In this document: piece by piece, positions 10,086-47,512 of the stretch
Position numbering within the stretch: position 1 is the first letter of the stretch
How the letters are laid out: each line of letters starts with the position of its first letter
NCBI GenBank assembly: GCA_044341565.1
Contig: JBIIRM010000008.1
Coordinates: forward strand, 1-47,688
Direction of reading: 5' to 3'
From: Minisyncoccia bacterium
GTDB lineage: Bacteria; Patescibacteriota; Minisyncoccia; SW-4-49-11
Length of the DNA stretch: 47,688 nt
Program-made: the position numbers and the translations under genes
The notes under the pieces: generated by a model
What the model saw: only the letters and a program-made list of their open reading frames with translations
What the model was told of the DNA's origin: nothing
Database searches by the model: none

Positions 10086-10416
10086 TATCCAAGGAGAATG
10101 GTAATCGCGCATATCCATATATATGGTGAGTGAGGAAAGTCTGGACACCTATTACTTTGTAATAAATGATAGTGGGTAATACCCACCATTGAGCTTGCTC
10201 AATCGGGATAGTATCGCAGAAACAAGACATTTGAGTATATCTCATCTAAGGTGAAAAGAGATAAACCCTATCAGGTGCAAGGCCGTGCTTTTCTGTATTG
10301 AAAAGAGTGCCGCCAAGAATATGCTGGTAACAGTATATCAAGATAAATGATTACCTATGTATATTTGCTTGCAAGTATGCATAACAGAATCCAGCTTATA
10401 TTCTTCTTGGATAATT
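10086..10416 (+). ncRNA. rnpB: RNase P RNA (bacterial type A-like)
   Basis: Conserved CR-I-like GAGGAAAGTCTGGAC at 10132-10146 and CR-V-like ACAGAATCCAGCTTAT at 10384-10399. Internal GGGTAATACCCACC and AGATAAATGATTACC resemble universal rnpB elements. The P1 helix forms between TATCCAAGGAGAAT (10086-10099) and ATTCTTCTTGGATA (10400-10413) with one G-U pair. A TATAAT at 10074-10079 puts a transcription start near 10086. Confidence 0.85.
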
Positions 10417-16277: not shown

Positions 16278-17384
16278 TTATCCAATTACTGGTATAGAGA
16301 ATCTAGGTTCGGGGCTTGATTTACGAGATTTTTTGGCTTCAAATGTATTGAGATAAGCATAGTGATATTTATGTACTTGTCCTTCAATAGATAATATATC
16401 TTGAATTATTGGCATATATTCTGAGGCTATGCGCTTGAGAATAGGATACATATCCTCAATAATATTGAGCCCGGTTACAATAGAGCTATAATTATAAGGA
16501 GTAAAGAATATTCCATTTGCTTTTATTAATTCTTGATTATATTCTCCTTTTGAAGCAAGAACAGGAATCCCAGCAATTAGAGCTAGGGATAGAGGATATT
16601 TATCTTCATTATTCGGAGAAATTTCTACAAATATATGAGCATTTTGAATCAGAGACTGTTCGGTATTCCCGCTTAATTCTCCTACAAAAAGCATAGTATC
16701 ATTTTGATAAGACTCACGTATAGATGGCTTTACTTTACCCAGTACAATAACAGGAAGATTCAGATTATGTTTGCGATATGCCTTTAACCATAATTCTAAA
16801 CTTTCAGAATCTCTATATTGCCCATTATGAACCAGAATATATTCTTGAGGATATAAATCTTTGAAATTATTTTGAGAATTTACAATAGAAGCAGTATCAA
16901 TTCCTGTTGGTATACTATATACTTTTGATTTAAAAGAAGCGTTTAGGAGAGTTTGTAATTCTGGATTATCTATAATCAAAGAATCAGAAAACTGAGCAGA
17001 TATATAAGAGAGTAGCATATAGCGTCGTCTATTCTTTTTGCTATTGACAAAAGTATATTGATGATAATCAAAAATAACCCTTACTTGAGGCATTTGTAAT
17101 GATACCCAAAAAGCCACCCAAGCATATTCTAGCGATCTAATATGTACAATATCAAGATTTTCTATTTTCCGGAGCTCACGAATAATGGACTTAACTTTAG
17201 GTTGACTGGGAATAATATGAATATTCTTATATTCCGTTAATTGGGTGTAATTAGGGTCTGAGAGCACATATACAGAATGTCCTCGTCTTGCCAATTGAGT
17301 CGCTACAATTTCACAATTATACTCATTTCTATCTCGAGTATTTTGATAAGGAATTCCTCTGGTACCAACAAATGCTATGACCAT
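16278..17384 (-). CDS. glycosyltransferase (GT-B fold, GT4-like)
   Basis: The N-terminus MVIAFVGTRGIPYQN...ATQLARRGHSVYVL and the C-terminal half (LFVGELSG...EISPNNEDKYPLSLALIAGIPVLAS) fit GT-B glycosyltransferases. The track start at 17408 is a TTG, and ATG at 17384 is preferred. Confidence 0.75.
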   Translation of the reverse strand: MVIAFVGTRGIPYQNTRDRNEYNCEIVATQLARRGHSVYVLSDPNYTQLTEYKNIHIIPSQPKVKSIIRELRKIENLDIVHIRSLEYAWVAFWVSLQMPQVRVIFDYHQYTFVNSKKNRRRYMLLSYISAQFSDSLIIDNPELQTLLNASFKSKVYSIPTGIDTASIVNSQNNFKDLYPQEYILVHNGQYRDSESLELWLKAYRKHNLNLPVIVLGKVKPSIRESYQNDTMLFVGELSGNTEQSLIQNAHIFVEISPNNEDKYPLSLALIAGIPVLASKGEYNQELIKANGIFFTPYNYSSIVTGLNIIEDMYPILKRIASEYMPIIQDILSIEGQVHKYHYAYLNTFEAKKSRKSSPEPRFSIPVIG

Positions 17385-17453
17385 ATGGGATATTAGTTCT
17401 ACAGACAAAAACTATAGCATAAAATAGCAGTTTTGTCAATTTCTGATATTATT

Positions 17454-17956
17454 TTTCCACCCCTTTCCCTGCTACCCCTCAATTTATCTCCCGTAGGGAG
17501 AGAGGGGAATTAGCTAAGTCCACACCCGTCGACTTTGTCGACACCCTCGCCGGCGAGGCCTGCCTGCGGTAGGCAGGGACAGTTTTATTGTCCTCCCTTG
17601 GGGGAGCTTTGGTTCCTCCTATATTTGTTTAGGAGGGGGTGCCCGTAATAGACTGAAGGTCTGGGAAAGGGGTCGGGAAAACAGAAGTTTTCCCGTGGAG
17701 GAAGGTTGGGAAACCGTGAGGTTTCACAGGAGCAAATCCCATTTGCGACGGGGGAGGGAGGATAGAGTTTAAGTTTGTATTTTATCCACCCCGTCCAGCA
17801 AAGCTGTCCACCCCTCAAGAGGGGAATATATACAATGTACTGTCCTAAAAATTCCCCTCATGGGTTGTGAGTAGATAGGAGTCAGTATATAACAAAGTGC
17901 TTTGTCCGAAAAATTCCCCTCTTGAGGGGTGCCGTCGCTAGACGGCGGGGTGGAAA
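17454..17956 (+). repeat. G+C-rich mosaic stem-loop cassette, copy A (the largest), bounded by a 10-nt inverted repeat
   Basis: TTTCCACCCC (17454-17463) and GGGGTGGAAA (17947-17956). At least 11 short perfect GC-rich hairpins are present. The backbone is shared with 38577-38778, 42131-42206 and 47131-47305. Confidence 0.85.
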
Positions 17957-17959
17957 GTA

Positions 17960-18913
17960 TTACAATAACTCTCTATTCACAAAATACACCCCTGCATATC
18001 CATTCGCAAAGCTATCAGCAGTAATAGTATTTTTCCCCTCTACAGTTAATTCTTTGACCGCAATATTACCTATTTTTGTCCCAATAATCAGATTGTGACT
18101 GACAGAATCTAATTGCCAATATCCTGGCTTAAGTTTAATATCAGATATATGCTCAAGATCTAATCTATCCAATACTACTTTTTTGTCCGTATTGAGATAG
18201 GTATATACTTGTGGCCAAATAGTATAAGCTCTATAGGCATTATTAATGTCCTCGGCTGATTGACTCTCCCAATCAATAAGCCCATCCATTTTTTGAACCA
18301 TTTTCACAAAACTAGCTTTAGCATCATCTTGAACCCAGGGAGTAATTTCTCCATTCATAAAAGGAATAAGATTTTGTCTCAATATATCAGCCGCAACAGT
18401 GATAATTTTTGCCTCAAGTTCAATATAGGTATCGGTAGGAGATATAGTGATTTCCTCTTGAGCAATAATAGGTCCATGATCCATCAAATGATCAATTTCC
18501 ATCAAACTAACAGCAGTACTCTTGTCTCCATTACGGAGGCTCGCCTGTATAGGAGATGGCCCACGATACTGAGGTAGTCTTGAAGGATGAATATTCAACA
18601 CTCGATGAGGCATAATATCTAATATAGCTTGCGGAATAATTTTACCATAGGCAATAATTAGCCAAATATCAGCAGATAATCCTCGCAATAATTCACTAGT
18701 CTCAGGAGCTTTGAGAGAATGAGGACTATACACGGGAATAGAATGACTTTCCCCAAATACTTTGAGAGGACTAGGAGTTAATATTCTTTTACGCCCCTGC
18801 GGAGTATCAGGAGTAGTAATAATAGCCACAATATCAGCCCAATCGAGTAGAGACTCAGCAATAGCAACCGTAAGCTGAGGAGTACCCCAAACTACAATAC
18901 GGGGTTTAGACAT
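17960..18913 (-). CDS. fmt: methionyl-tRNA formyltransferase
   Basis: PRIVVWGTPQLTV...TTPDTPQGRKR...LNIHPSRLPQYRGPSPIQASLRNGDKSTAVSLMEI...MDHGPIIAQ. The start is probably ATG 18913 (MSKPRIV), which overlaps the def stop by 8 nt. The alternative start is 18925. Confidence 0.93.
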   Translation of the reverse strand: MSKPRIVVWGTPQLTVAIAESLLDWADIVAIITTPDTPQGRKRILTPSPLKVFGESHSIPVYSPHSLKAPETSELLRGLSADIWLIIAYGKIIPQAILDIMPHRVLNIHPSRLPQYRGPSPIQASLRNGDKSTAVSLMEIDHLMDHGPIIAQEEITISPTDTYIELEAKIITVAADILRQNLIPFMNGEITPWVQDDAKASFVKMVQKMDGLIDWESQSAEDINNAYRAYTIWPQVYTYLNTDKKVVLDRLDLEHISDIKLKPGYWQLDSVSHNLIIGTKIGNIAVKELTVEGKNTITADSFANGYAGVYFVNRELL

Positions 18914-19424: not shown

Positions 19425-19483
19425 ATAATGCTATAACAATTTGTTACTATATTATAGCATAAATGAGGCAAAAAAGCAAGATG

Positions 19484-30061: not shown

Positions 30062-31408
30062 ATGGCAGGGAATAATTCTCTTGATTCATTTACCAAAAAT
30101 CGCAACGTAATTATTATTGCTGGTGTCGCTATATTAGCTATTGTTATATTGATGCTTGGTAATGCGCTTGGATTCAAAATTGGAGGTGAGAAAAAAGTAC
30201 AAAAAGCAAATTTGGTAGTATGGGGAGTCTGGGATGAAAGTGAGACAATGACGAAATTGGGAAGTGATTTTCGTAAAATATATCCTAATGTAAGTATAGA
30301 ATATCGTAAATTCAAGCCACAAGATTATGAGACAGAACTTATTAATGCTTTAGCTGAGGGACGAGGTCCAGATATATTGGCAATGGAGAGAACTTGGCTT
30401 GGTAAACATAAGAATAAGTTAGCCCCAATGCCAGAAGAAATTATGACACTCAAAGAGTATCAAGATACTTTTGTAGATGTGGTTAATCAAGATTTTATTG
30501 ATGAGGGTAAAATATATGGATTCTCTCTATACACCGATACTTTAGCATTATTATATAACAAAGATGCTTTTAATGATGCTGGAATTGCAAATCCACCAGT
30601 AACTTGGGAAGAATTACAAAGTATAGTACCCAAATTAACTAAAATAGATCAATTTGGTGAGATTAAACAGGCGGGAGTTGCATTAGGTACAGGAGATAAT
30701 ATAAATCGTTCACCAGATGTTTTGATGGCATTAATGTTACAGTCTGGAGCTCAATTTACTGACCCTAAAGATACTAGTAGAATTACTTTTTCTCAAAGTA
30801 AAAATGTCAATGGACAAAATATAAATCCTGCTCAATTATCTTTAGCTTATTATACCGATTTTGCTAATCCTCGAAAAGGAGTATATACCTGGAATTCAAC
30901 CTTAAATAATTCAATAGATGCTTTTTATGAAAGAGAAGTTGCTATGATATTTGGATATTCATATCAGGTAGAAGCAATTAAAGCAAAAGCCCCAAGACTT
31001 AATTTTGCAGTAGCTCCTCTCCCTCAGGTATCTACAGATTCTGGCCTTGCTAATTTTGCAAATTATTGGGGATATGGAGTAAGTGGTCAATCTAAATACC
31101 CAAAAGAAGCCTTTGCATTCCTCAAATCAGCCACTGAAAAGGAAAATGCTCAAGAGTATTTCTTGAAAACCAAGCGCCCAACAGCCAGAAGAGATTTAGT
31201 AGATACACAATCACAAGACATTGATTATGGAGTATTTGTAAAACAAATATTACAAGCTAAAACCTGGAGACAACCCGATAATAATTCAGTAGATAAAATA
31301 TTTATCAATGCTATTAATGGAGTAAATTCAGGATTACTTGACTATAGTAAAGCTATTTCGCAAGCTCAAACAGAAATACAGACATTAGCTGATAATGTGA
31401 AAAAATGA
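30062..31408 (+). CDS. ABC-transporter-type extracellular solute-binding protein (family 1, sugar-like), N-terminally membrane-anchored
   Basis: TM anchor VIIIAGVAILAIVILML, then VVWGVWDESE...YPNVSIEYRKFKPQDYETELINALAEGRGPDILAM...YNKDAF, typical of SBP_bac_1. No permease or ATPase gene is adjacent. Confidence 0.8.
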   Translation: MAGNNSLDSFTKNRNVIIIAGVAILAIVILMLGNALGFKIGGEKKVQKANLVVWGVWDESETMTKLGSDFRKIYPNVSIEYRKFKPQDYETELINALAEGRGPDILAMERTWLGKHKNKLAPMPEEIMTLKEYQDTFVDVVNQDFIDEGKIYGFSLYTDTLALLYNKDAFNDAGIANPPVTWEELQSIVPKLTKIDQFGEIKQAGVALGTGDNINRSPDVLMALMLQSGAQFTDPKDTSRITFSQSKNVNGQNINPAQLSLAYYTDFANPRKGVYTWNSTLNNSIDAFYEREVAMIFGYSYQVEAIKAKAPRLNFAVAPLPQVSTDSGLANFANYWGYGVSGQSKYPKEAFAFLKSATEKENAQEYFLKTKRPTARRDLVDTQSQDIDYGVFVKQILQAKTWRQPDNNSVDKIFINAINGVNSGLLDYSKAISQAQTEIQTLADNVKK

Positions 31409-32730
31409 AATATATAAAGTTCAGTATAGTTTTTGGTATAATATTCTTAGTAGTTTCATTTTTTAGTATTAACTATACTAATGCACAGAGTGCAGATGGA
31501 GCTTGTAGTGCAGGGGCAACATCATTAGAGCAAAACTGTACTTTTCAAAATGGAAGCTCTCGTTTAAATGGAAAATGCCAGGTTAAAGATAAAAATAATC
31601 CAGGTTTAGGATTAACTTGTCGTACTAGCTTAGGATCATCCTGCTCAGGTGATACTTGTCAAAATGGATTAGCCTGTATTAATCAGGTTTGTTCCAGTCC
31701 AAGAGGGGCTAAAACTCAAGGTCAATCTTGTTCAGGGAATGGAAATGAATGTATTGCAGGTCTTGAATGTAGAAATTTTATATGTACAAAAGAAGCTGCC
31801 ATTACTGGTGGAGGGTCTGGGCAAACTGGAGGTGGTCAAGTCGGTACCCCTGGAGGCTCAACAGGGGCAGAAACAGGCCTTGTTAAATGTGGAGTGAGTC
31901 GAGATTGTACTATTTGTGATATATTTATCTTAATTCGAGATATCTTTAATTTTGCTTTAGGGCTACTAGCCTCACTCGCGGTATTAAGTGTTGTTATTGG
32001 TGGGGTCTATGTGTTGACTTCAGCAGGTAATCCTGGAGCGGTAAGTACAGGATATGGCATTATTACCAATGCAGTAATTGGACTATTACTCGTAATGGCA
32101 AGCTTTCTCTTATTTAGTTTCCTTCTTGTGGGGCTTGGATTTCAAGAACAAAATTTCTCAGCTGTACTTACTTTTCAACCAGGTAAAGTATTCGAGGTAA
32201 AATGTGATAATGCTAGTACTTTTAATGATAATGGATCAAATGGAGGAGGGTCTGCTGTACTGGGTAATGGTGGGAGTAACTCATCAACTATAAGTTGTGC
32301 GAGTTTAAATGATTCGGTTAAGGCGGATTTAAATAATGCTAGTTCTCAGACGGGTGTTCCTTCTGAACTATTGGCTGGAATTATGCAAAGAGAATGTCCT
32401 GCAGCCTTTAATAATGCTAATGCTTGTCCAAATGAAAATGGCTCTGGAGCAGCTGGAGCAGGTCAATTTTTACAAAGTAGCTGGAATGAGCTGGGATGTA
32501 GTGGAAGTAGAACGAATCGAAGAGATGCCCTTGTTTGTATGGGGAAACATTTAAAACGGTATAATAAATGTTCTAGTCAATGTAATGGATATTCTAATTT
32601 TTCATCCAGAGCTTGTTCTGATTGTGTGGCAGGAGATTATTGTGGTGCATGTTCAGGTTCATCAGCTTGTGGAGGTAATTATTGTGATGGGGTGTGGAGT
32701 AACTATCAAAAATTTAAAACATGTAAATAA
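31405..32730 (+). CDS. secreted Cys-rich domain, T4SS-pilin-like TM hairpin and C-terminal Cys-rich lytic-transglycosylase-like domain (fusion)
   Basis: Signal peptide MKYIKFSIVFGIIFLVVSFFSINYTNA. Cys-rich repeats follow the pattern C.G..C..GL.C.N..C. The pilin core is FNFALGLLASLAVLSVVIGGVYVLTSAGNPGAVSTGYGIITNAVIGLLLVMASFLLF (about 31897-32155). The SLT-like motifs are ELLAGIMQRECP...GAAGAGQFLQSSW (about 32302-32730). The ATG overlaps the SBP stop (ATGA). Confidence 0.7.
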   Translation: MKYIKFSIVFGIIFLVVSFFSINYTNAQSADGACSAGATSLEQNCTFQNGSSRLNGKCQVKDKNNPGLGLTCRTSLGSSCSGDTCQNGLACINQVCSSPRGAKTQGQSCSGNGNECIAGLECRNFICTKEAAITGGGSGQTGGGQVGTPGGSTGAETGLVKCGVSRDCTICDIFILIRDIFNFALGLLASLAVLSVVIGGVYVLTSAGNPGAVSTGYGIITNAVIGLLLVMASFLLFSFLLVGLGFQEQNFSAVLTFQPGKVFEVKCDNASTFNDNGSNGGGSAVLGNGGSNSSTISCASLNDSVKADLNNASSQTGVPSELLAGIMQRECPAAFNNANACPNENGSGAAGAGQFLQSSWNELGCSGSRTNRRDALVCMGKHLKRYNKCSSQCNGYSNFSSRACSDCVAGDYCGACSGSSACGGNYCDGVWSNYQKFKTCK

Positions 32731-32734
32731 TAAT

Positions 32735-33841
32735 ATGAATAAAATCTTCAGTCTATTTTTACTAATAGCATCTTTCTATTCTATTTCTCCAGTATATGCA
32801 GATACTAGTATATACTCAAGTTTCTTATATCCAAGTTTTGCTGTAAATAATGAAATTTTATATTTTGATCAATATGCAGGAGCTATTGTGAAACAAAATG
32901 TTATTACTGGTGAGAAGTCAGAGATATTTGATTTAATACCTTCTGCTACTAACTTAGTATCAATTTCTCCTGAACAATCTAAAATATTACTTTATCCTCC
33001 TAATATATCATTTCCAAAATATCAAGCACCATTTTTTGATAGTTCAAGAAAATCTCCCGATAATCAATGGTGGGTATATGATTTTAATACAACAAATAAA
33101 ATACTACTAGATGATAAAATTAATTTAGTTGGCTGGTATTCTGATAATGAAATTATATATGTATTTAATAATAAAGATATCACAGTTGCCCCAACCAATG
33201 ACCTATCTAAATTTAATATTCTATACTCTAATATACCATCTAATGTGGATATTAATAAACAAATTATAGCAAATGATAACCATCAAATAATTCCATTAGT
33301 TGATGGTTATCTTGTGGGAAATAAGAAAAACTTTGTATATCAAAAAAGTACTAATTATCAAATTTCAGCCAATCCAAAATTGAATTATTTTTTGGAATAT
33401 AATAATAGTCAGATAAAAGTTTTTGATTGGGATAGTAAGCAAGTAGGTAGTATTATTAATATCAGTAACAGGAAAGCTTTGTTACTGAATAATGATACTA
33501 TAGCTATATTGGCTACAAATGGTAATTTGATACAATATAATTTACAAGGGCAGGAGCAATCAAATGTATCATTAAATCCAATAGTTACTGATATATATTC
33601 GGTTGATCAATCTGGAAATGAACTATTAATTAATCAAAATAATCAAATACGTACTTATAATTTATTAAAAAAAGAGCAGGGAACCATCCTATTATCCACC
33701 AATACTCCTACTCCTAATACTGACACAAATTCAGAGACAGAACAATCCAACACATTAGGGAATATTGCTATTTTAATAGGAGGAATAGTATTCCTTGCTG
33801 GGGGACTGGGGCTATTTATTTGGAAATTAAGAAAAAGATGA
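32735..33841 (+). CDS. secreted beta-propeller-like protein with a C-terminal TM anchor
   Basis: The true start ATG 32735 gives the signal peptide MNKIFSLFLLIASFYSISPVYA. The body is Asn/Ile-rich and beta-strand-like with PD40/TolB-like strings (ISPEQSKILLY, WWVYDFNT). The C-terminal anchor is IAILIGGIVFLAGGLGLFIWKLRKR. Confidence 0.6.
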   Translation: MNKIFSLFLLIASFYSISPVYADTSIYSSFLYPSFAVNNEILYFDQYAGAIVKQNVITGEKSEIFDLIPSATNLVSISPEQSKILLYPPNISFPKYQAPFFDSSRKSPDNQWWVYDFNTTNKILLDDKINLVGWYSDNEIIYVFNNKDITVAPTNDLSKFNILYSNIPSNVDINKQIIANDNHQIIPLVDGYLVGNKKNFVYQKSTNYQISANPKLNYFLEYNNSQIKVFDWDSKQVGSIINISNRKALLLNNDTIAILATNGNLIQYNLQGQEQSNVSLNPIVTDIYSVDQSGNELLINQNNQIRTYNLLKKEQGTILLSTNTPTPNTDTNSETEQSNTLGNIAILIGGIVFLAGGLGLFIWKLRKR

Positions 33842-33871
33842 TATAATTAAAAATAATTAAATACAGATACT

Positions 33872-34711
33872 ATGAAATTAATCATATCTACAGCATTTGG
33901 AATTGTCTTTGCACTAGTATTCTTTAGTAATTCTAATATAACACTTGCTCAATGTGGAAGTGGTCCAAGCTGTACAGGGAATTTTGTTTGTGTGAACGCA
34001 GATGGTACTCCTAAATGTTTGCTAAATCAGGTTAGTAATAATGGTTTATGTGAGGGCGACTCTTCTGTGAAATGTTCAGCAAATCAAGCTTGTATTCAAA
34101 ATAATGCAACAGAAATTGTATGTGCCCCTTTAGCGGGATCATCAGCTAATACAAATTTACCAGGTTCTGGAAGTACAACAACTTGTCCAACCTGTAAATC
34201 TGGTGAAACATGTATTAAGAGTGCAGCAGGACCACTCGTATGTAGATCCGCCGCTACAAATTGTACTCCTGCTTGTACAACAGGTAAGGTGTGTGTTAAA
34301 GCAACGCCAACAGCAACTACTGGAACTTGTGTAGATAATGCGCCTACTCAAGCTGCTGGAGGAGCTGGTGGTAATGGTGCTGGAGGGAATGGATCTTCAG
34401 GAGGAAGTGGTGGTGGCTTATTAGAAGGTCTCAATGCTTTTGGTAGTGCAGATTCTGGACTTAATACAGAGGGAACTCTCATTGGGTTTATTTCTAATAT
34501 TATTCGTTGGATATTAGGACTTCTTGGAACTGTGTTCTTTGTAATCATAGTTTTACAAGGGTATCTTTATATGACATCTTCAGGAGATGCGAGTAAAACA
34601 GCAGCAGCTACGGGGGCTATTACTAATGCAGTAATAGGACTACTGATTATTATGGGAGCTTTCCTCATTACTAATTTTGTGACAAGTGGTTTGATTGCCG
34701 CTGGGTCTTAA
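33872..34711 (+). CDS. T4SS-pilin-like protein, paralogue 1, with a long Cys-rich N-terminal extension and Gly-rich linker
   Basis: Signal peptide MKLIISTAFGIVFALVFFSNSNITLA, then about 20 Cys in C..G..C-type repeats and the linker AGGAGGNGAGGNGSSGGSGGG. The pilin core is IIRWILGLLGTVFFVIIVLQGYLYMTSSGDASKTAAATGAITNAVIGLLIIMGAFLITNF. Confidence 0.8.
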   Translation: MKLIISTAFGIVFALVFFSNSNITLAQCGSGPSCTGNFVCVNADGTPKCLLNQVSNNGLCEGDSSVKCSANQACIQNNATEIVCAPLAGSSANTNLPGSGSTTTCPTCKSGETCIKSAAGPLVCRSAATNCTPACTTGKVCVKATPTATTGTCVDNAPTQAAGGAGGNGAGGNGSSGGSGGGLLEGLNAFGSADSGLNTEGTLIGFISNIIRWILGLLGTVFFVIIVLQGYLYMTSSGDASKTAAATGAITNAVIGLLIIMGAFLITNFVTSGLIAAGS

Positions 34712-34721
34712 TATCTTATAT

Positions 34722-35069
34722 ATGATAGAAGCATTTATATCCAATTTCATCATAGTAACAGCTAAAGCCCAGGAGACATCGCCTCCTCCTATATTAGCTA
34801 TACCTACAGGAACAGGAGTGGGGGAGCAAGGAGATCTGTTTACTTTTGTGTCAGCTATTGTGCAATGGGGATTGGGATTAATAGGGATAGTATTATTTGT
34901 ACTTATACTCTTTTCTGGATTCCAATATGCAACAGCAGGGGGCGACTCTAAAAAAACTGAAGAAGCTATTAGTAGAATTACTTCTGCAGTAATCGGAGTA
35001 TTCATTGTAGGGGTGGCTTTTATACTATCCAATGCAGTATTAGGATTTGTTTTTAGTCTAGGATCTTAA
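34722..35069 (+). CDS. T4SS-pilin-like protein (TrbC/VirB2-type two-TM hairpin), paralogue 2
   Basis: The core is IVQWGLGLIGIVLFVLILFSGFQYATAGGDSKKTEEAISRITSAVIGVFIVGVAFILSNAVLGFVF. The start is trimmed to ATG 34722, after the upstream stop at 34711. Confidence 0.8.
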   Translation: MIEAFISNFIIVTAKAQETSPPPILAIPTGTGVGEQGDLFTFVSAIVQWGLGLIGIVLFVLILFSGFQYATAGGDSKKTEEAISRITSAVIGVFIVGVAFILSNAVLGFVFSLGS

Positions 35070-35097
35070 TATACTGACTTATCCACAATAGTATCAC

Positions 35098-35126
35098 TTG
35101 CATAGTAATATAAGATATGATAGTAT
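35098..35126 (+). promoter_or_regulatory. candidate promoter for pilin paralogue 3
   Basis: TTGCAT (35098-35103), a 17-nt spacer, then TAGTAT (35121-35126) in the 100-bp A+T-rich spacer. Confidence 0.25.
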
Positions 35127-35169
35127 AAAAACATAGAACATATTATTCAATAATTATTAAGATATTCTT

Positions 35170-35553
35170 ATGAATACTTCCCAGATAAAATCAATAGCAA
35201 CAAGAGCATTATTACCTGTATTAGTATTAGCTCCTACTTTAGCTGGAGCTGCAACTCCCATAAAAGATACTAGAGTCATAGGTGAAATACCTCAAGTAGC
35301 TGGTACTAATCAATCTACTGACCTTGTGGCTACAGTACAAGTGGTTATTCAATGGGCATTAGGATTTATCGGAATTGTAATATTCATTATTTTCTTATTT
35401 GCAGGATTTGAATATGCAACAGCAGGAGGAGATGAAGGAAAAGCAAAAACTGCACAGTCTCGAATGATTAACGCGGTAATTGGACTTATTATTATATTCT
35501 TTGCCTTTGTAGCTTCAAATGCAATATTGTCATTCGTATTCCCAGGAAATTAA
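35170..35553 (+). CDS. T4SS-pilin-like protein, paralogue 3
   Basis: Signal-like N-terminus ...LVLAPTLAGAATP. The core is VIQWALGFIGIVIFIIFLFAGFEYATAGGDEGKAKTAQSRMINAVIGLIIIFFAFVASNAILSFVFP. Confidence 0.85.
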   Translation: MNTSQIKSIATRALLPVLVLAPTLAGAATPIKDTRVIGEIPQVAGTNQSTDLVATVQVVIQWALGFIGIVIFIIFLFAGFEYATAGGDEGKAKTAQSRMINAVIGLIIIFFAFVASNAILSFVFPGN

Positions 35554-35573
35554 TCAAATTGATAGATACTATG

Positions 35574-35610
35574 AAACAATAAAAAGGGATTATATCCCTT
35601 TTTATTGTTT
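35574..35610 (+). terminator. rho-independent terminator-like hairpin after pilin paralogue 3
   Basis: AAACAATAAAAAGGGAT-tat-ATCCCTTTTTATTGTTT is a 17-bp perfect stem whose 3' arm carries a T-run. Confidence 0.65.
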
Positions 35611-35697
35611 AGAGAATACATATTCAAATAGTATAATCTTCTTGTCAGATAATAGAATACTTGATATACTTGTAATATATAGAATAGTAAAATAGAT

Positions 35698-36114
35698 ATG
35701 AGAGTCTTATTGATTATAATAGCTTTATTGATGGGGGTATTTGTATTAAGTTCTAATATATCTCTAGCTCAAAGAGCCCCTGATGCCACTCTCCCTGGTC
35801 CAGGAACAATCCCAATTAATACCGGAATAGCTGAGGGACCAAGCTTGATAGAAACAGTGTCTATTATTATAAGGTGGATATTAGGATTTATTGGAATTAT
35901 AATATTTATTATATTCCTATATGCAGGATTTGAATATGCAACAGCAGGAGGGGATGAGAAGCAGGCTGAATCAGCTCAAAAAAGAATGGTAAATGCAATC
36001 ATAGGACTGATTATTATATTCTTTGCATTTGTATTGTCGAATGCAGTATTAAGCTTTGTATTTCCTCCAGACGATACAGTAGATGATCCTAATATGCCAT
36101 TAAATGTAAATTAG
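35698..36114 (+). CDS. T4SS-pilin-like protein, paralogue 4
   Basis: Signal peptide MRVLLIIIALLMGVFVLSSNISLA. The core is IIRWILGFIGIIIFIIFLYAGFEYATAGGDEKQAESAQKRMVNAIIGLIIIFFAFVLSNAVLSFVFP. Confidence 0.85.
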   Translation: MRVLLIIIALLMGVFVLSSNISLAQRAPDATLPGPGTIPINTGIAEGPSLIETVSIIIRWILGFIGIIIFIIFLYAGFEYATAGGDEKQAESAQKRMVNAIIGLIIIFFAFVLSNAVLSFVFPPDDTVDDPNMPLNVN

Positions 36115-36115
36115 T

Positions 36116-36556
36116 ATGAAATATCTATCAATAGTAATAATTGCAATAATGATACTAATGAGTAATCCTTTTATTAGCTTTGCAGGTACCCCATCAGGGG
36201 GAGGAACTACTCCAGCTACGGGTGGTACTCCATCAGGGGGAGGAACTACTCCAGCTACGGGTGGTACTCCCACAACCCCAACTGACAATACTTCTGCTCA
36301 AAGTGTAGGATTTGTGAATCCAATTCGATTTAATTCTATCCCTGAGCTTATAGCAGGTATTATCAATGCTCTCTTGGGTATACTCGGAGCTATTACTGTG
36401 GCAATATTAGTGATGTCAGGATTTAAATATATGACAGCTTCTAATCCAGGAGCAGTAGGGCAAGCTTTAGATGGTATTAGGAATGCAATTGTAGGACTTA
36501 TGATTATTATGGGGGCTTTTCTCATCACACAATATATTATATCTGCTTTGGTGTAA
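36116..36556 (+). CDS. T4SS-pilin-like protein, paralogue 5, with a tandem Thr/Pro/Gly repeat
   Basis: Signal-like MKYLSIVIIAIMILMSNPFISFA, then (GTPSGGGTTPATG)x2. The core is IINALLGILGAITVAILVMSGFKYMTASNPGAVGQALDGIRNAIVGLMIIMGAFLITQY. Confidence 0.85.
   Translation: MKYLSIVIIAIMILMSNPFISFAGTPSGGGTTPATGGTPSGGGTTPATGGTPTTPTDNTSAQSVGFVNPIRFNSIPELIAGIINALLGILGAITVAILVMSGFKYMTASNPGAVGQALDGIRNAIVGLMIIMGAFLITQYIISALV
36185..36262 (+). repeat. two tandem copies of a 39-bp coding repeat
   Basis: GGTACCCCATCAGGGGGAGGAACTACTCCAGCTACGGGT (36185-36223) is repeated at 36224-36262 with 2 substitutions. Each copy encodes GTPSGGGTTPATG, and a partial third unit (GTPTTPT) follows. Confidence 0.9.
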
Positions 36557-38460: not shown

Positions 38461-38576
38461 TTTGTGAATGAACGAGGGACTTCTTATTCATAACACAAAA
38501 TCATAAATTTGTCAACTCATAATAACAGGTGTATATACATAAAATTATTCCGACTCAGGTCAATGAGTACTTATAA

Positions 38577-38778
38577 TGTCCTCCCTTGGGGGAGGTGGGG
38601 AAAGGGGTCGGGAAAACGAGAGGTTTCACAGGAGCAAATTTTATTTGCGACGGAGGAGGATAATTCAAAAAGTCCACACCCACCGCTAACGCGGTACCCC
38701 CTCGCCAGCGAGTGACAGATTTAATATCCTCCCCCGGGGGAGGATAAAATAGTACAGGCGACTGAAAGGTCGCCCCTA
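38577..38778 (+). repeat. G+C-rich mosaic stem-loop cassette, copy B
   Basis: A 17-nt run GTCCTCCCTTGGGGGAG (38577-38593) is identical to 17590-17606. GGGAAAGGGGTCGGGAAAAC, GAGCAAAT-ttt-ATTTGCGACG (38631-38651) and AAGTCCACACCC (38669-38680) are all shared with copy A. A 22-nt perfect palindrome lies at 38724-38745. Confidence 0.85.
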
Positions 38779-38821
38779 CAAAATTGATAATTCACAACTA
38801 TTACTTCATCTCAACCTTGTA

Positions 38822-42099: not shown

Positions 42100-42130
42100 G
42101 GTATATACTCACTATAGGTAATCCTCCTCC

Positions 42131-42206
42131 GTTCCTCCTATATATAATAGGAGGAACACCTCCCCCCAAGGGAGGACAGAAATTTTGTCCCTCGCCAGCG
42201 AGGGAC
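42131..42206 (-). repeat. G+C-rich mosaic stem-loop cassette, copy C (condensed, inverted relative to copy A)
   Basis: GTTCCTCCT-n9-AGGAGGAAC (42131-42157). CTCCCCCCAAGGGAGGACAGAAATTTTGTCCC (42160-42191) matches the reverse complement of 17576-17606 with one extra C and a changed loop. GTCCCTCGC-ca-GCGAGGGAC lies at 42187-42206. Confidence 0.8.
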
Positions 42207-46974: not shown

Positions 46975-47060
46975 GGAGAGTTCGCATAGTTGGTCTAGTG
47001 CGCACGCTTGGAAAGCGTGTATACCGCAAGGTATCAAGAGTTCGAATCTCTTACTCTCCG
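46975..47060 (+). tRNA. tRNA-Ser (anticodon GGA), class II with a long variable arm
   Basis: Acceptor GGAGAGT/ACTCTCC plus discriminator G. D-arm GCA/TGC with a GG loop. Anticodon stem CACGC/GCGTG with loop TTGGAAA. Variable arm ATACC-gcaa-GGTAT. T-arm AAGAG-TTCGAAT-CTCTT. No CCA is encoded. Confidence 0.93.
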
Positions 47061-47063
47061 CAA

Positions 47064-47101: not shown

Positions 47102-47130
47102 CCGTGAGTTAGTAAAGAGAAATTCGAACT

Positions 47131-47305
47131 CGGGAAGGGGTCGGGAAACGGAAGTTTCCTGTGGCGGAAGTAATCAATACCCCTAGATAGGAAGGCAATG
47201 AGGAGCTTGCTCCGAATGTCGGAAACCGTGGGTGTCCGAGATGGGGTTGTAGGGGTATTGAGGGAACTGAGGGGGTTTCAAAGAGCAAATCCCATTTGCG
47301 ACGAG
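47131..47305 (+). repeat. G+C-rich mosaic stem-loop cassette, copy D
   Basis: CGGGAAGGGGTCGGGAAACGGAAGTTTCCTGTGGCGGAAG (47131-47170) is colinear with 17662-17704. GGAAACCGTGGGTGTCC is present. The 21-nt core GAGCAAATCCCATTTGCGACG (47283-47303) is identical to 17730-17750. More hairpins follow up to about 47413. Confidence 0.85.
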
Positions 47306-47325
47306 TTCGGAATCTCTTACTATCT
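47303..47325 (+). repeat. degenerate direct repeat of the tRNA-Ser 3' end (att-like)
   Basis: GAGTTCGGAATCTCTTACTATCT compared with GAGTTCGAATCTCTTACTCTCC in the tRNA (47038-47059): one inserted G and two substitutions near the 3' end. Confidence 0.75.
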
Positions 47326-47512
47326 ATATTCCGACACTCGGGAATAAATCCCTCGCTGCCTTCCTGCACGGGGGATTTTGCCTTCATACATACGATGTAT
47401 GAAATCCTGAAGGAGTTATTTAGATTCAAACTTCATTTTTAATTGGACTAAATAAATTTTAGTTGGTATTCTATTTATTAGGTGGTATATCAGTTAATCT
47501 AAAAATAATTTT

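Follow-up and report, generated by a model that had tools for sequence, protein, structure and literature searches.

The spacer between fmt and a GT4 glycosyltransferase gene in a Minisyncoccia bacterium (contig JBIIRM010000008.1, whose 47,688 analysed nucleotides we call the window) contains a G+C-rich, hairpin-dense block at positions 17454-17956. We interpret this block as a nested cluster of non-autonomous mobile or recombinogenic hairpin repeats that would act as folded single strands, an interpretation to which we assign a probability of about 0.6, and we file it among the interspersed mosaic repeats. It is carried by the multi-copy modularity of the block's components, by their gain, loss and inversion among close relatives, by the conservation of their structure, and by the homology of the central module with elements located at gene ends, a family for which the comparison of gene copies demonstrates integration with replacement of the gene end. 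The element family to which this central module, hereafter the core, belongs is apparently undescribed so far and spans the Patescibacteria (Candidate Phyla Radiation, CPR).

The original prediction, made from the sequence alone, described a single 503-bp G+C-rich cassette of stem-loops closed by a 10-nt inverted repeat. The unusual composition and hairpin density were confirmed: G+C content is 51.7% in 17454-17956 versus 35.1% across the window, and the block contains 31 perfect hairpins (stem of at least 5, loop of 2-10) versus 6.2 ± 3.5 in 300 dinucleotide shuffles, the top count among all 503-nt windows. Its RNA fold z-score relative to shuffles is -8.5 on the + strand and -9.0 on the - strand. 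All 13 predicted hairpins have exact coordinates, as does a 19-nt direct repeat at 17841-17859 and 17903-17921. The terminal 10-nt inverted pair (TTTCCACCCC at 17454-17463 and GGGGTGGAAA at 17947-17956) is also present where described, but it is not the boundary of one unit; it corresponds to the common end motif ACGGGGTGGA of two outward-facing, oppositely oriented modules. A BLAST comparison of the block with the window and related loci showed that nearly all of 17460-17960 recurs elsewhere, but piecewise, the block being a nested mosaic in which five or more repeat modules face either way. The single-cassette idea is not supported: the parts occur separately, reordered and in both orientations, and relatives hold 184- and 368-bp intermediates. 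Stop codons are found in every frame (4-7 in each of the six) and the indels between aligned copies include lengths not divisible by 3; the block is therefore not coding. Beyond the glycosyltransferase gene and fmt that flank it follow def and priA. Homology to relatives places the glycosyltransferase start at the ATG at 17383, so that the spacer measures 576 bp, not 551 bp.

Several distinct modules can be recognized along the block. The left-end module (17454-17516, - strand) ends, on that strand, in the family end motif GGGGTGGAAA and has its TCTCCC-gta-GGGAGA hairpin nested within CCCCTC...GAGGGG; 11-16 similar copies exist at other Paceibacteria loci. Module A (17517-17580, + strand) is made of AGTCCACACCC, a hairpin, CCTCGCCGGCGAGG and the CCTGCCT hairpin, and recurs in L065, L071 and at 38672-38715 of the window, with a compensated hairpin (GTCGAC/GTCGAC versus ACCGC/GCGGT). 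Two pyrimidine/purine hairpins follow (17583-17637, + strand), hpY (GTCCTCCC-TTGG-GGGAG) and TTCCTCCT-n10-AGGAGG, both of which recur inverted at 42132-42179. The 36 hpY matches in the fetched loci include the compensatory stem variants CTCCCT/AGGGAG, CCTCCT/AGGAGG, CCTCCC/GGGAGG and CCCCCT/AGGGGG. The core leader (17639-17662, + strand), consisting of GTGCCCGTAAT and the hairpin AGAC-tgaag-GTCT, is kept 5' of the core in at least 20 copies, with AAAGGC-ttta-GCCTTT as an alternative hairpin. The core itself (17663-17764, 102 nt, + strand) contains, in this order, GGGAAAGGGGT, helix P2 (CGGGAAAAC/GTTTTCCCG), GTGGAGGAAGGTTGG, helix P3 (GAAACC-GTGA-GGTTTC), ACAGGA, helix P4 (GCAAAT-ccc-ATTTGC) and GACGGGGGAGGGAGGATA; it scores 127.8 bits with R1, a covariance model of the core. 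Module M2 is present as an inverted copy (17782-17830, - strand), with AATTCCCCTCTTGAGGGGTGG, a variable hairpin and ACGGGGTGGA, and as a forward copy (17903-17961, + strand) that ends in GGGGTGGAAAGTATT and holds a predicted terminator hairpin on the - strand. Across the 33 M2 instances, the second hairpin retains its pairing with differing sequences (seven different stems).

Comparison with relatives, namely contigs encoding fmt proteins 89-95% identical to that of the window, revealed the clear contrast between empty and filled sites that the original prediction had proposed to look for in sister genomes. The fmt-glycosyltransferase spacer measures 57 bp in L074/L075 and L078/L079, 184 bp in L073, 368 bp in L076/L077 and 576 bp in the window, while the nucleotide identity of def plus fmt to the window is 96.0% for L073, 94.1% for L074 (empty), 93.9% for L076 and 88.1% for L078 (empty, outgroup). 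The 57-bp spacers of L074 and the outgroup L078 show one difference over the aligned stretch; the empty state is therefore ancestral. The gain at fmt occurred within ~6% nucleotide divergence and, as the filled forms come from three independent assemblies, it is no artefact. The L073 spacer consists of an inverted M2 doublet alone, and that of the window equals L073 plus two segments. One of them, of 62 nt (17847-17908), is flanked by a 13-nt direct repeat, GAGGGGAATTTTT, which is the above 19-nt repeat seen on the opposite strand; it is present in the window and L076/L077 and not in L073. The other, of 330 nt (17464-17793), includes the core, has GGGGTGG on both sides and is missing from the 96%-identical L073; L076 has the 62-nt addition and the start of the 330-nt one and diverges after it. 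A glycosyltransferase promoter-like site (17411-17439, - strand, TTGACA-17-TATAGT), kept in empty and filled relatives alike, marks the right edge of the insertion. Variation also affects other sites: the fusA-mgsA spacer of L008 (87 bp, no modules) is a second empty site, a cassette 5' of rpsL is remodelled in L056 (99% protein identity; intact core, other distal modules) and has an inverted core in L008, and L030 carries a cassette after fmt with its core in the opposite orientation.

The recurrence that had been predicted at three further spacers of the window (38558-38790, 42120-42205 and 47109-47420) is real, each containing a different subset of modules in a different order. The cassette located 5' of the rpsL promoter (38558-38790, + strand) runs from hpY through a core from which 31 nt are deleted internally and A to a second hpY and module E (GGCGAC-tgaaa-GTCGCC). 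Compared with the intact L056 orthologue, its core has lost these 31 nt between two GGGAAAAC-like repeats (38598-38626), an instance of decay by slippage or recombination inside the module. The fusA-mgsA spacer (42120-42205) has three hairpin modules and no core. The last spacer contains a member of the gene-end type (47111-47325, + strand; core 55.9 bits) 3' of tRNA-Ser(GGA) (46975-47061), which opens with a segment complementary to the T-loop and acceptor 3' strand at the tRNA 3' end (47111-47131), continues with a core bearing a ~110-nt insert (47132-47302; the third core copy of the window) and ends in a decayed second tRNA 3' end (47303-47325). It is followed by the long hairpin module X (47330-47420, + strand), which is also found inverted within the core at 47172-47260 and between tRNA and core in L026 and L039.

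Copies are likewise dispersed in other genomes. An exact-motif scan, with one genome per species, returned 72 loci, ~55 of which are true copies belonging to ~12 Paceibacteria/Parcubacteria metagenome-assembled genomes (MAGs), with 16 exact-motif copies in a single MAG; R1 likewise finds 55 core copies of at least 50 bits in the genome loci. The elements occupy dozens of distinct spacers, often beside accessory genes (HsdR, MazF-like toxins, RhuM), and their modules are found singly, in varying order and in either orientation, many copies being truncated. Of the explanations that the original prediction had entertained, its own proposed tests thus favour mobile elements of the GC-cluster or REP (repetitive extragenic palindromic) kind over a structured multi-copy RNA: further copies are many, sister genomes differ in occupancy, and the novelty checks returned neither an Rfam match nor a conserved coding frame. 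The search motif GAGCAAATnnnATTTGCGACG was also detected directly 3' of an archaeal tRNA-like sequence (ggttcaaatcccga..g) in the Micrarchaeota MAG loci L032, L042, L048, L064 and L068, whose matches to the core model are weak (12-17 bits) and may represent an unrelated hairpin. Outside the CPR, the same small hairpin occurs within other palindromic repeats (cattccgagGAGCAAAT...GCGACGtgggaatc) or after tRNA-like sequence, at L034, L060 (Ruminococcus), L017, L044 (Clostridia MAG) and L036 (Bacteroidaceae; 25.6 bits with the core model). A pseudoknot pairing 5' CCCGT with 3' ACGGG in the dispersed core, considered as an additional structural feature, is unsupported in a second subfamily.

The core has a much wider family at the ends of conserved genes. 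A metagenome scan with a 20-mer of the gene-end subfamily yielded at least 120 loci, with G+C contents from 31% to 59%, and R1, which was built from dispersed copies only, matches 106 sites in 100 metagenome loci (E < 1e-3). The core at 17663-17764 aligns position by position with this family, in which the outer pairs of P3 covary freely and the junction purines are invariant. All loci with a nameable organism are patescibacterial, namely the MAGs and one metagenome locus whose DnaK is 100% identical to that of a Candidatus Uhrbacteria genome; the other metagenome contigs have no taxonomy. Among the matches listed, 107 loci are informative, and in 82 of them the core lies 7-400 nt (mostly 30-70 nt) 3' of a same-strand tRNA. 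At least 20 tRNA isotypes, the host tRNAs being complete, and one transfer-messenger RNA (tmRNA) are represented. Among other genes, rplL, H+-PPase and ndk have copies at their 3' ends, and dnaK and a glycosyltransferase-like gene have them at their 5' ends, where the core is antisense to the gene. On the core strand, the order is gene body, terminal segment (20-95 nt), spacer (often with a terminator), complement, core and second copy of the segment, the elements measuring 100-350 bp. The complement corresponds to the first 12-19 nt of the terminal segment and matches the local tRNA at 11 versus 6 for another isotype, whereas the direct repeat of the gene end has a median of 15 exact nt versus 7 in controls. 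In protein genes, the second copy keeps the reading frame and its changes are almost all synonymous: seven of eight codons differ between the copies in L178, every change being synonymous, and L156 has ~14 synonymous and 1 non-synonymous changes in 31 codons. These almost exclusively synonymous differences exclude replicative target duplication with later decay and, together with the antisense cases, also an mRNA intron. The pattern is in keeping with a DNA element that inserts at the end of a gene and brings a substitute for that end, a behaviour known from islands that target tRNA genes. Such a direct repeat beside an intact gene is found in the gene-end members, including 47111-47325, and not at 17663-17764.

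Small GIY-YIG genes are located within 600 nt in 12 of the 120 loci listed, and the element of L182 contains one. In L091, a GIY-YIG gene with its own 14-nt inverted repeats (TTCGCCAAGGCTAC / GTAGCCTTGGCGAA) lies in the region ~110 to 620 nt after the core start and is flanked by two more copies of the tRNA-Ser 3' end; from this layout, GIY-YIG cassettes and core elements seem to share one tRNA site, at which they insert successively. Restriction-modification-like genes directly follow a gene-end-type core in L019 (3565-4545 and 1478-2230), with no tRNA nearby; the contig is A+T-rich and an upstream open reading frame (ORF) has 55% G+C. The element may mark an island border.

These observations suggest a scenario in which the modules (left-end, A, hpY, core, M2 and X), short, non-coding, G+C-rich units confined to one Paceibacteria (Patescibacteria/CPR) lineage, would multiply and be reshuffled at the DNA level, entering intergenic spacers in both directions. 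The cluster probably entered the ancestral 57-bp spacer between fmt and the glycosyltransferase gene and may later have been remodelled by more insertions or by deletions between its own repeats (GAGGGGAATTTTT and GGGGTGG). The 102-nt core would descend, in dispersed form, from an element present throughout the Patescibacteria, which inserts at conserved gene ends and carries a 12-19-nt target complement, a conserved multi-hairpin core and a replacement gene end. The modules would act as folded single strands recognized by an enzyme encoded elsewhere in the genome, with the stem closing the core mimicking the target; the closest analogies are REP elements with their RAYT transposases, the attC sites of integrons and the attP hairpin of the CTX phage. 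The dispersed Paceibacteria copies would have lost the gene-end logic and would spread or recombine at their own end motif, as the nesting at GGGGTGG suggests. As a side effect, the M2 copy beside fmt would supply a terminator-like hairpin. More tentatively, and with odds clearly below even, the parent unit might be a nucleic-acid-guided integration module that chooses its site by base pairing and of which the hairpin cassettes would be miniature retargeted offspring. Such a module would pair with a conserved gene end (any tRNA, tmRNA, rplL, dnaK, H+-PPase or ndk) and repair the gene from the copy that it carries, relying on nothing but host enzymes or on a small nuclease that recognizes structure, for example the GIY-YIG proteins encoded nearby.

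A number of results weigh against the interpretation of the block as mobile hairpin repeats. Neither in the window, which otherwise contains housekeeping genes, nor as a recurrent neighbour of the copies did we find a transposase, an integrase or a reverse transcriptase. We recovered no clean target-site duplication or precise insertion junction, either at the fmt-glycosyltransferase spacer or in the comparison of L012 with L033; in both cases, filled and empty spacers differ by a ~14-nt replacement. The core is ~90% identical across genomes with fmt proteins 65% identical, which needs sequence selection or horizontal spread. Where both neighbours are co-directional, the G-rich strand of the core has their sense in 16 cases and the opposite sense in three, the block's own copy, antisense to both neighbours, being among these three. 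Finally, G.U wobbles outnumber A.C mismatches on the G-rich strand (18 versus 9). Relative to local GC skew, the core strand shows a 39:16 bias towards agreement, inseparable from gene orientation, and no strict strand rule was found.

A search for a recurrent mobilizing gene by clustering of neighbouring ORFs (~1,200 plus a second set) yielded housekeeping genes, accessory ones (HsdR, MazF-like, RhuM and DUF1016-like) and small GIY-YIG genes only. We detected no RAYT (Y1/HUH) transposase in the window or among the module-flanked ORFs, no integron integrase in at least 190 loci and no element-encoded recombinase between the gene-end repeats. Annotated phage and plasmid records gave no match, and viral contigs one chance match and no true one. 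At the gathering threshold, Rfam 15 recognizes only RNase P and tRNA in the window; under permissive settings the best match in 17380-18000 has 17.6 bits (E = 0.25), and nothing beyond tRNA and RNase P was found in copy 3, 18 related loci and the canonical gene-end element L173. The full-text literature likewise contained no paper on these elements that we could find, PMC13011429 dealing with anticodon-loop group I introns only.

Various known entities were considered and rejected. A tmRNA or permuted tmRNA was contemplated because of the tRNA-like 3' end, and ARAGORN finds none. A group I intron is contradicted by the absence of any Intron_gpI match and by a core of ~85-100 nt, compared with the ~200 nt needed for a catalytic core; this and an mRNA intron with an alternative last exon are also at odds with the intact host genes and with cores antisense to dnaK and the glycosyltransferase gene. 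Simple target-site duplication does not account for gene-end copies that differ by up to 14 synonymous and 0-1 non-synonymous changes, nor does the template/variable repeat of a diversity-generating retroelement, the differences not being adenine-specific. A miniature inverted-repeat transposable element would agree with the 10-nt inverted repeat, but filled and empty sites differ by a ~14-nt replacement and show no duplication. An integron attC was dismissed on the basis of the end motif, ACGGGGTGGA and its complement, which is not GTTRRRY.

Among the rival explanations, the one that survives best, unlikely as we consider it, is that the modules, and chiefly the core, are functional structured RNA, that is, a multi-copy small RNA, a ribozyme or the RNA component of an RNA-guided system; a function at the RNA level would in that case lie behind their dispersal and conservation. 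The orientation bias of the core towards gene sense and the confinement of wobble pairs to the G-rich strand would suit such an RNA, as would the GNRA-type loops on P2 and P3, the covarying helices with invariant junction nucleotides, the -10-like hexamers enriched 21-31 nt 5' of gene-end cores, and a succession of complement-of-target, scaffold and copy-of-target that resembles a guide plus template. However, single-stranded DNA tolerates wobbles equally, the hexamer enrichment falls in T-rich terminator tails, the dispersed modules have no conserved promoter, and the core of the block is antisense to both neighbours. Moreover, P4 is usually GCGAAGC, GCGTAGC or GCGCAGC, which is the GNA-triloop minihairpin noted for its stability in DNA.

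It is improbable that the block is mainly a cis signal, whether as a terminator or insulator that separates fmt from the glycosyltransferase promoter or as a 3' structure that stabilizes mRNA. REP and BOX elements are known to be co-opted in this way, and a predicted intrinsic terminator, which is a consensus match only, lies on the - strand at 17929-17916 (CCCCTCAAGAGGGG followed by AATTTTT), 31 nt past the fmt stop, a hairpin that empty-site relatives lack. Nevertheless, one 25-nt hairpin would do, leaving 500 nt unexplained; the content varies between close relatives and is missing in some, and the same modules also occur 5' of promoters and between convergent or divergent genes. We give equally little credence to the possibility that the modules are inert debris, i.e., decayed island ends or old duplications changed by slippage or homologous recombination and devoid of current mobility. 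The failure to find a mobilizing gene, the junction-flanking repeats able to drive deletion, the many truncated copies and spacer differences that resemble replacement more than clean insertion all agree with it. They have to be set against cores ~90% identical across genera, compensatory changes that keep the hairpins, the dozens of distinct spacers occupied, the gain at fmt within ~6% nucleotide divergence, and second gene-end copies still intact in frame, which imply recent events. Finally, a single large structured RNA gene of the OLE, GOLLD or ROOL kind, non-coding and spanning all 503 bp, is scarcely credible: the block is a long G+C-rich spacer of extreme predicted structure in an A+T-rich genome, but it is absent in relatives at 94% and 88% nucleotide identity, exists as 184- and 368-bp versions in others, has parts that face both ways and recur independently, and has no Rfam match.

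The genomes of Patescibacteria are very small and, by the usual account, contain little mobile DNA. In one of their lineages, structured repeats that change fast take up several percent of the intergenic space; they probably cause breaks between contigs and provide new putative terminators. As they differ between strains with 94-96% identical flanking genes, these repeats can be used as strain markers. The gene-end layout (target complement, scaffold and spare target copy) predicts sequence-programmed integration, which is testable; if true, the guided module would constitute a new, Patescibacteria-specific class of programmable mobile element. Elements able to insert site-specifically with no recombinase of their own would be interesting from an evolutionary viewpoint and perhaps useful in practice.

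Other features of the region deserve mention. In L076-L079 (2487-3359), one more ORF, ~290 aa long (196-228 aa in the JGI versions), lies on the reverse strand between priA and def; it has no Pfam match, is absent in L074 and in the window (19425-19483), and has an E-type hairpin module beside it in L076. Within the window, 31405-36556 is occupied by a series of small paralogous ORFs that have in common a repeated hydrophobic segment at the C-terminus (repeat families D1, D3 and D6); in L002 and L056, the paralogues differ in number and identity. The ORF at 31405-32730, upstream of these paralogues, matches the type IV secretion system pilin family PF18895, and a 39-nt tandem duplication (36185-36262, perfect to 97%) within an ORF encodes a repeated peptide. 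A class A bacterial RNase P RNA (10089-10414, 140 bits) is located between recJ and a sugar transferase gene.

The block and its relatives share traits with several known systems. BOX elements of Streptococcus pneumoniae (boxA-boxB(n)-boxC) are also modular, non-coding, hairpin-rich and intergenic and have no transposase of their own, but they keep a fixed module order and one orientation per element, whereas the modules of the block vary in both and nest. The GC clusters of yeast mitochondria and the Rickettsia palindromic elements are, like the block, G+C-rich palindromic insertions in A+T-rich genomes with presence/absence polymorphism, although their sequences and hosts are unrelated; the Rickettsia elements, in addition, insert in frame in genes, while the elements described here are intergenic or preserve the gene via end duplication. 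The block also resembles the REP sequences and bacterial interspersed mosaic elements of enterobacteria and pseudomonads (with their REPINs and RAYT), which are short, G+C-rich, imperfect palindromes, intergenic and multi-copy, assembled into mosaics of several motif types in alternating orientation, a defining arrangement that the block displays, and which are strain-variable and sometimes used as terminators. The 184-bp form of L073, an inverted M2 doublet, resembles a REPIN. There is, however, no sequence similarity, no RAYT gene was seen near the copies, and REP is a single hairpin, whereas the core is a 100-nt multi-helix unit tied to gene-end elements. As for the gene-end members, they share with gene-end islands such as the dusA-associated ones a direct repeat of the gene terminus, an intact gene and synonymous-only differences. 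They differ in their size of 100-350 bp, in having no integrase, in using at least 20 tRNA isotypes and several protein genes, and in being alone in adding an inverted copy of the repeat start beside a conserved core. Compared with integron attC sites and the attP(+) of phage CTX, they have no GTTRRRY/RYYYAAC core sites, integron integrase or attI nearby, and while CTX attP targets dif, they target other sites, with far longer stems that match the target gene. Nevertheless, they share with both the order of site, cassette content, inverse site, structured centre and site, stems that vary in sequence with their structure conserved, and one strand that apparently folds; and, as in CTX, which uses the XerCD of its host, the element itself carries no recombinase.

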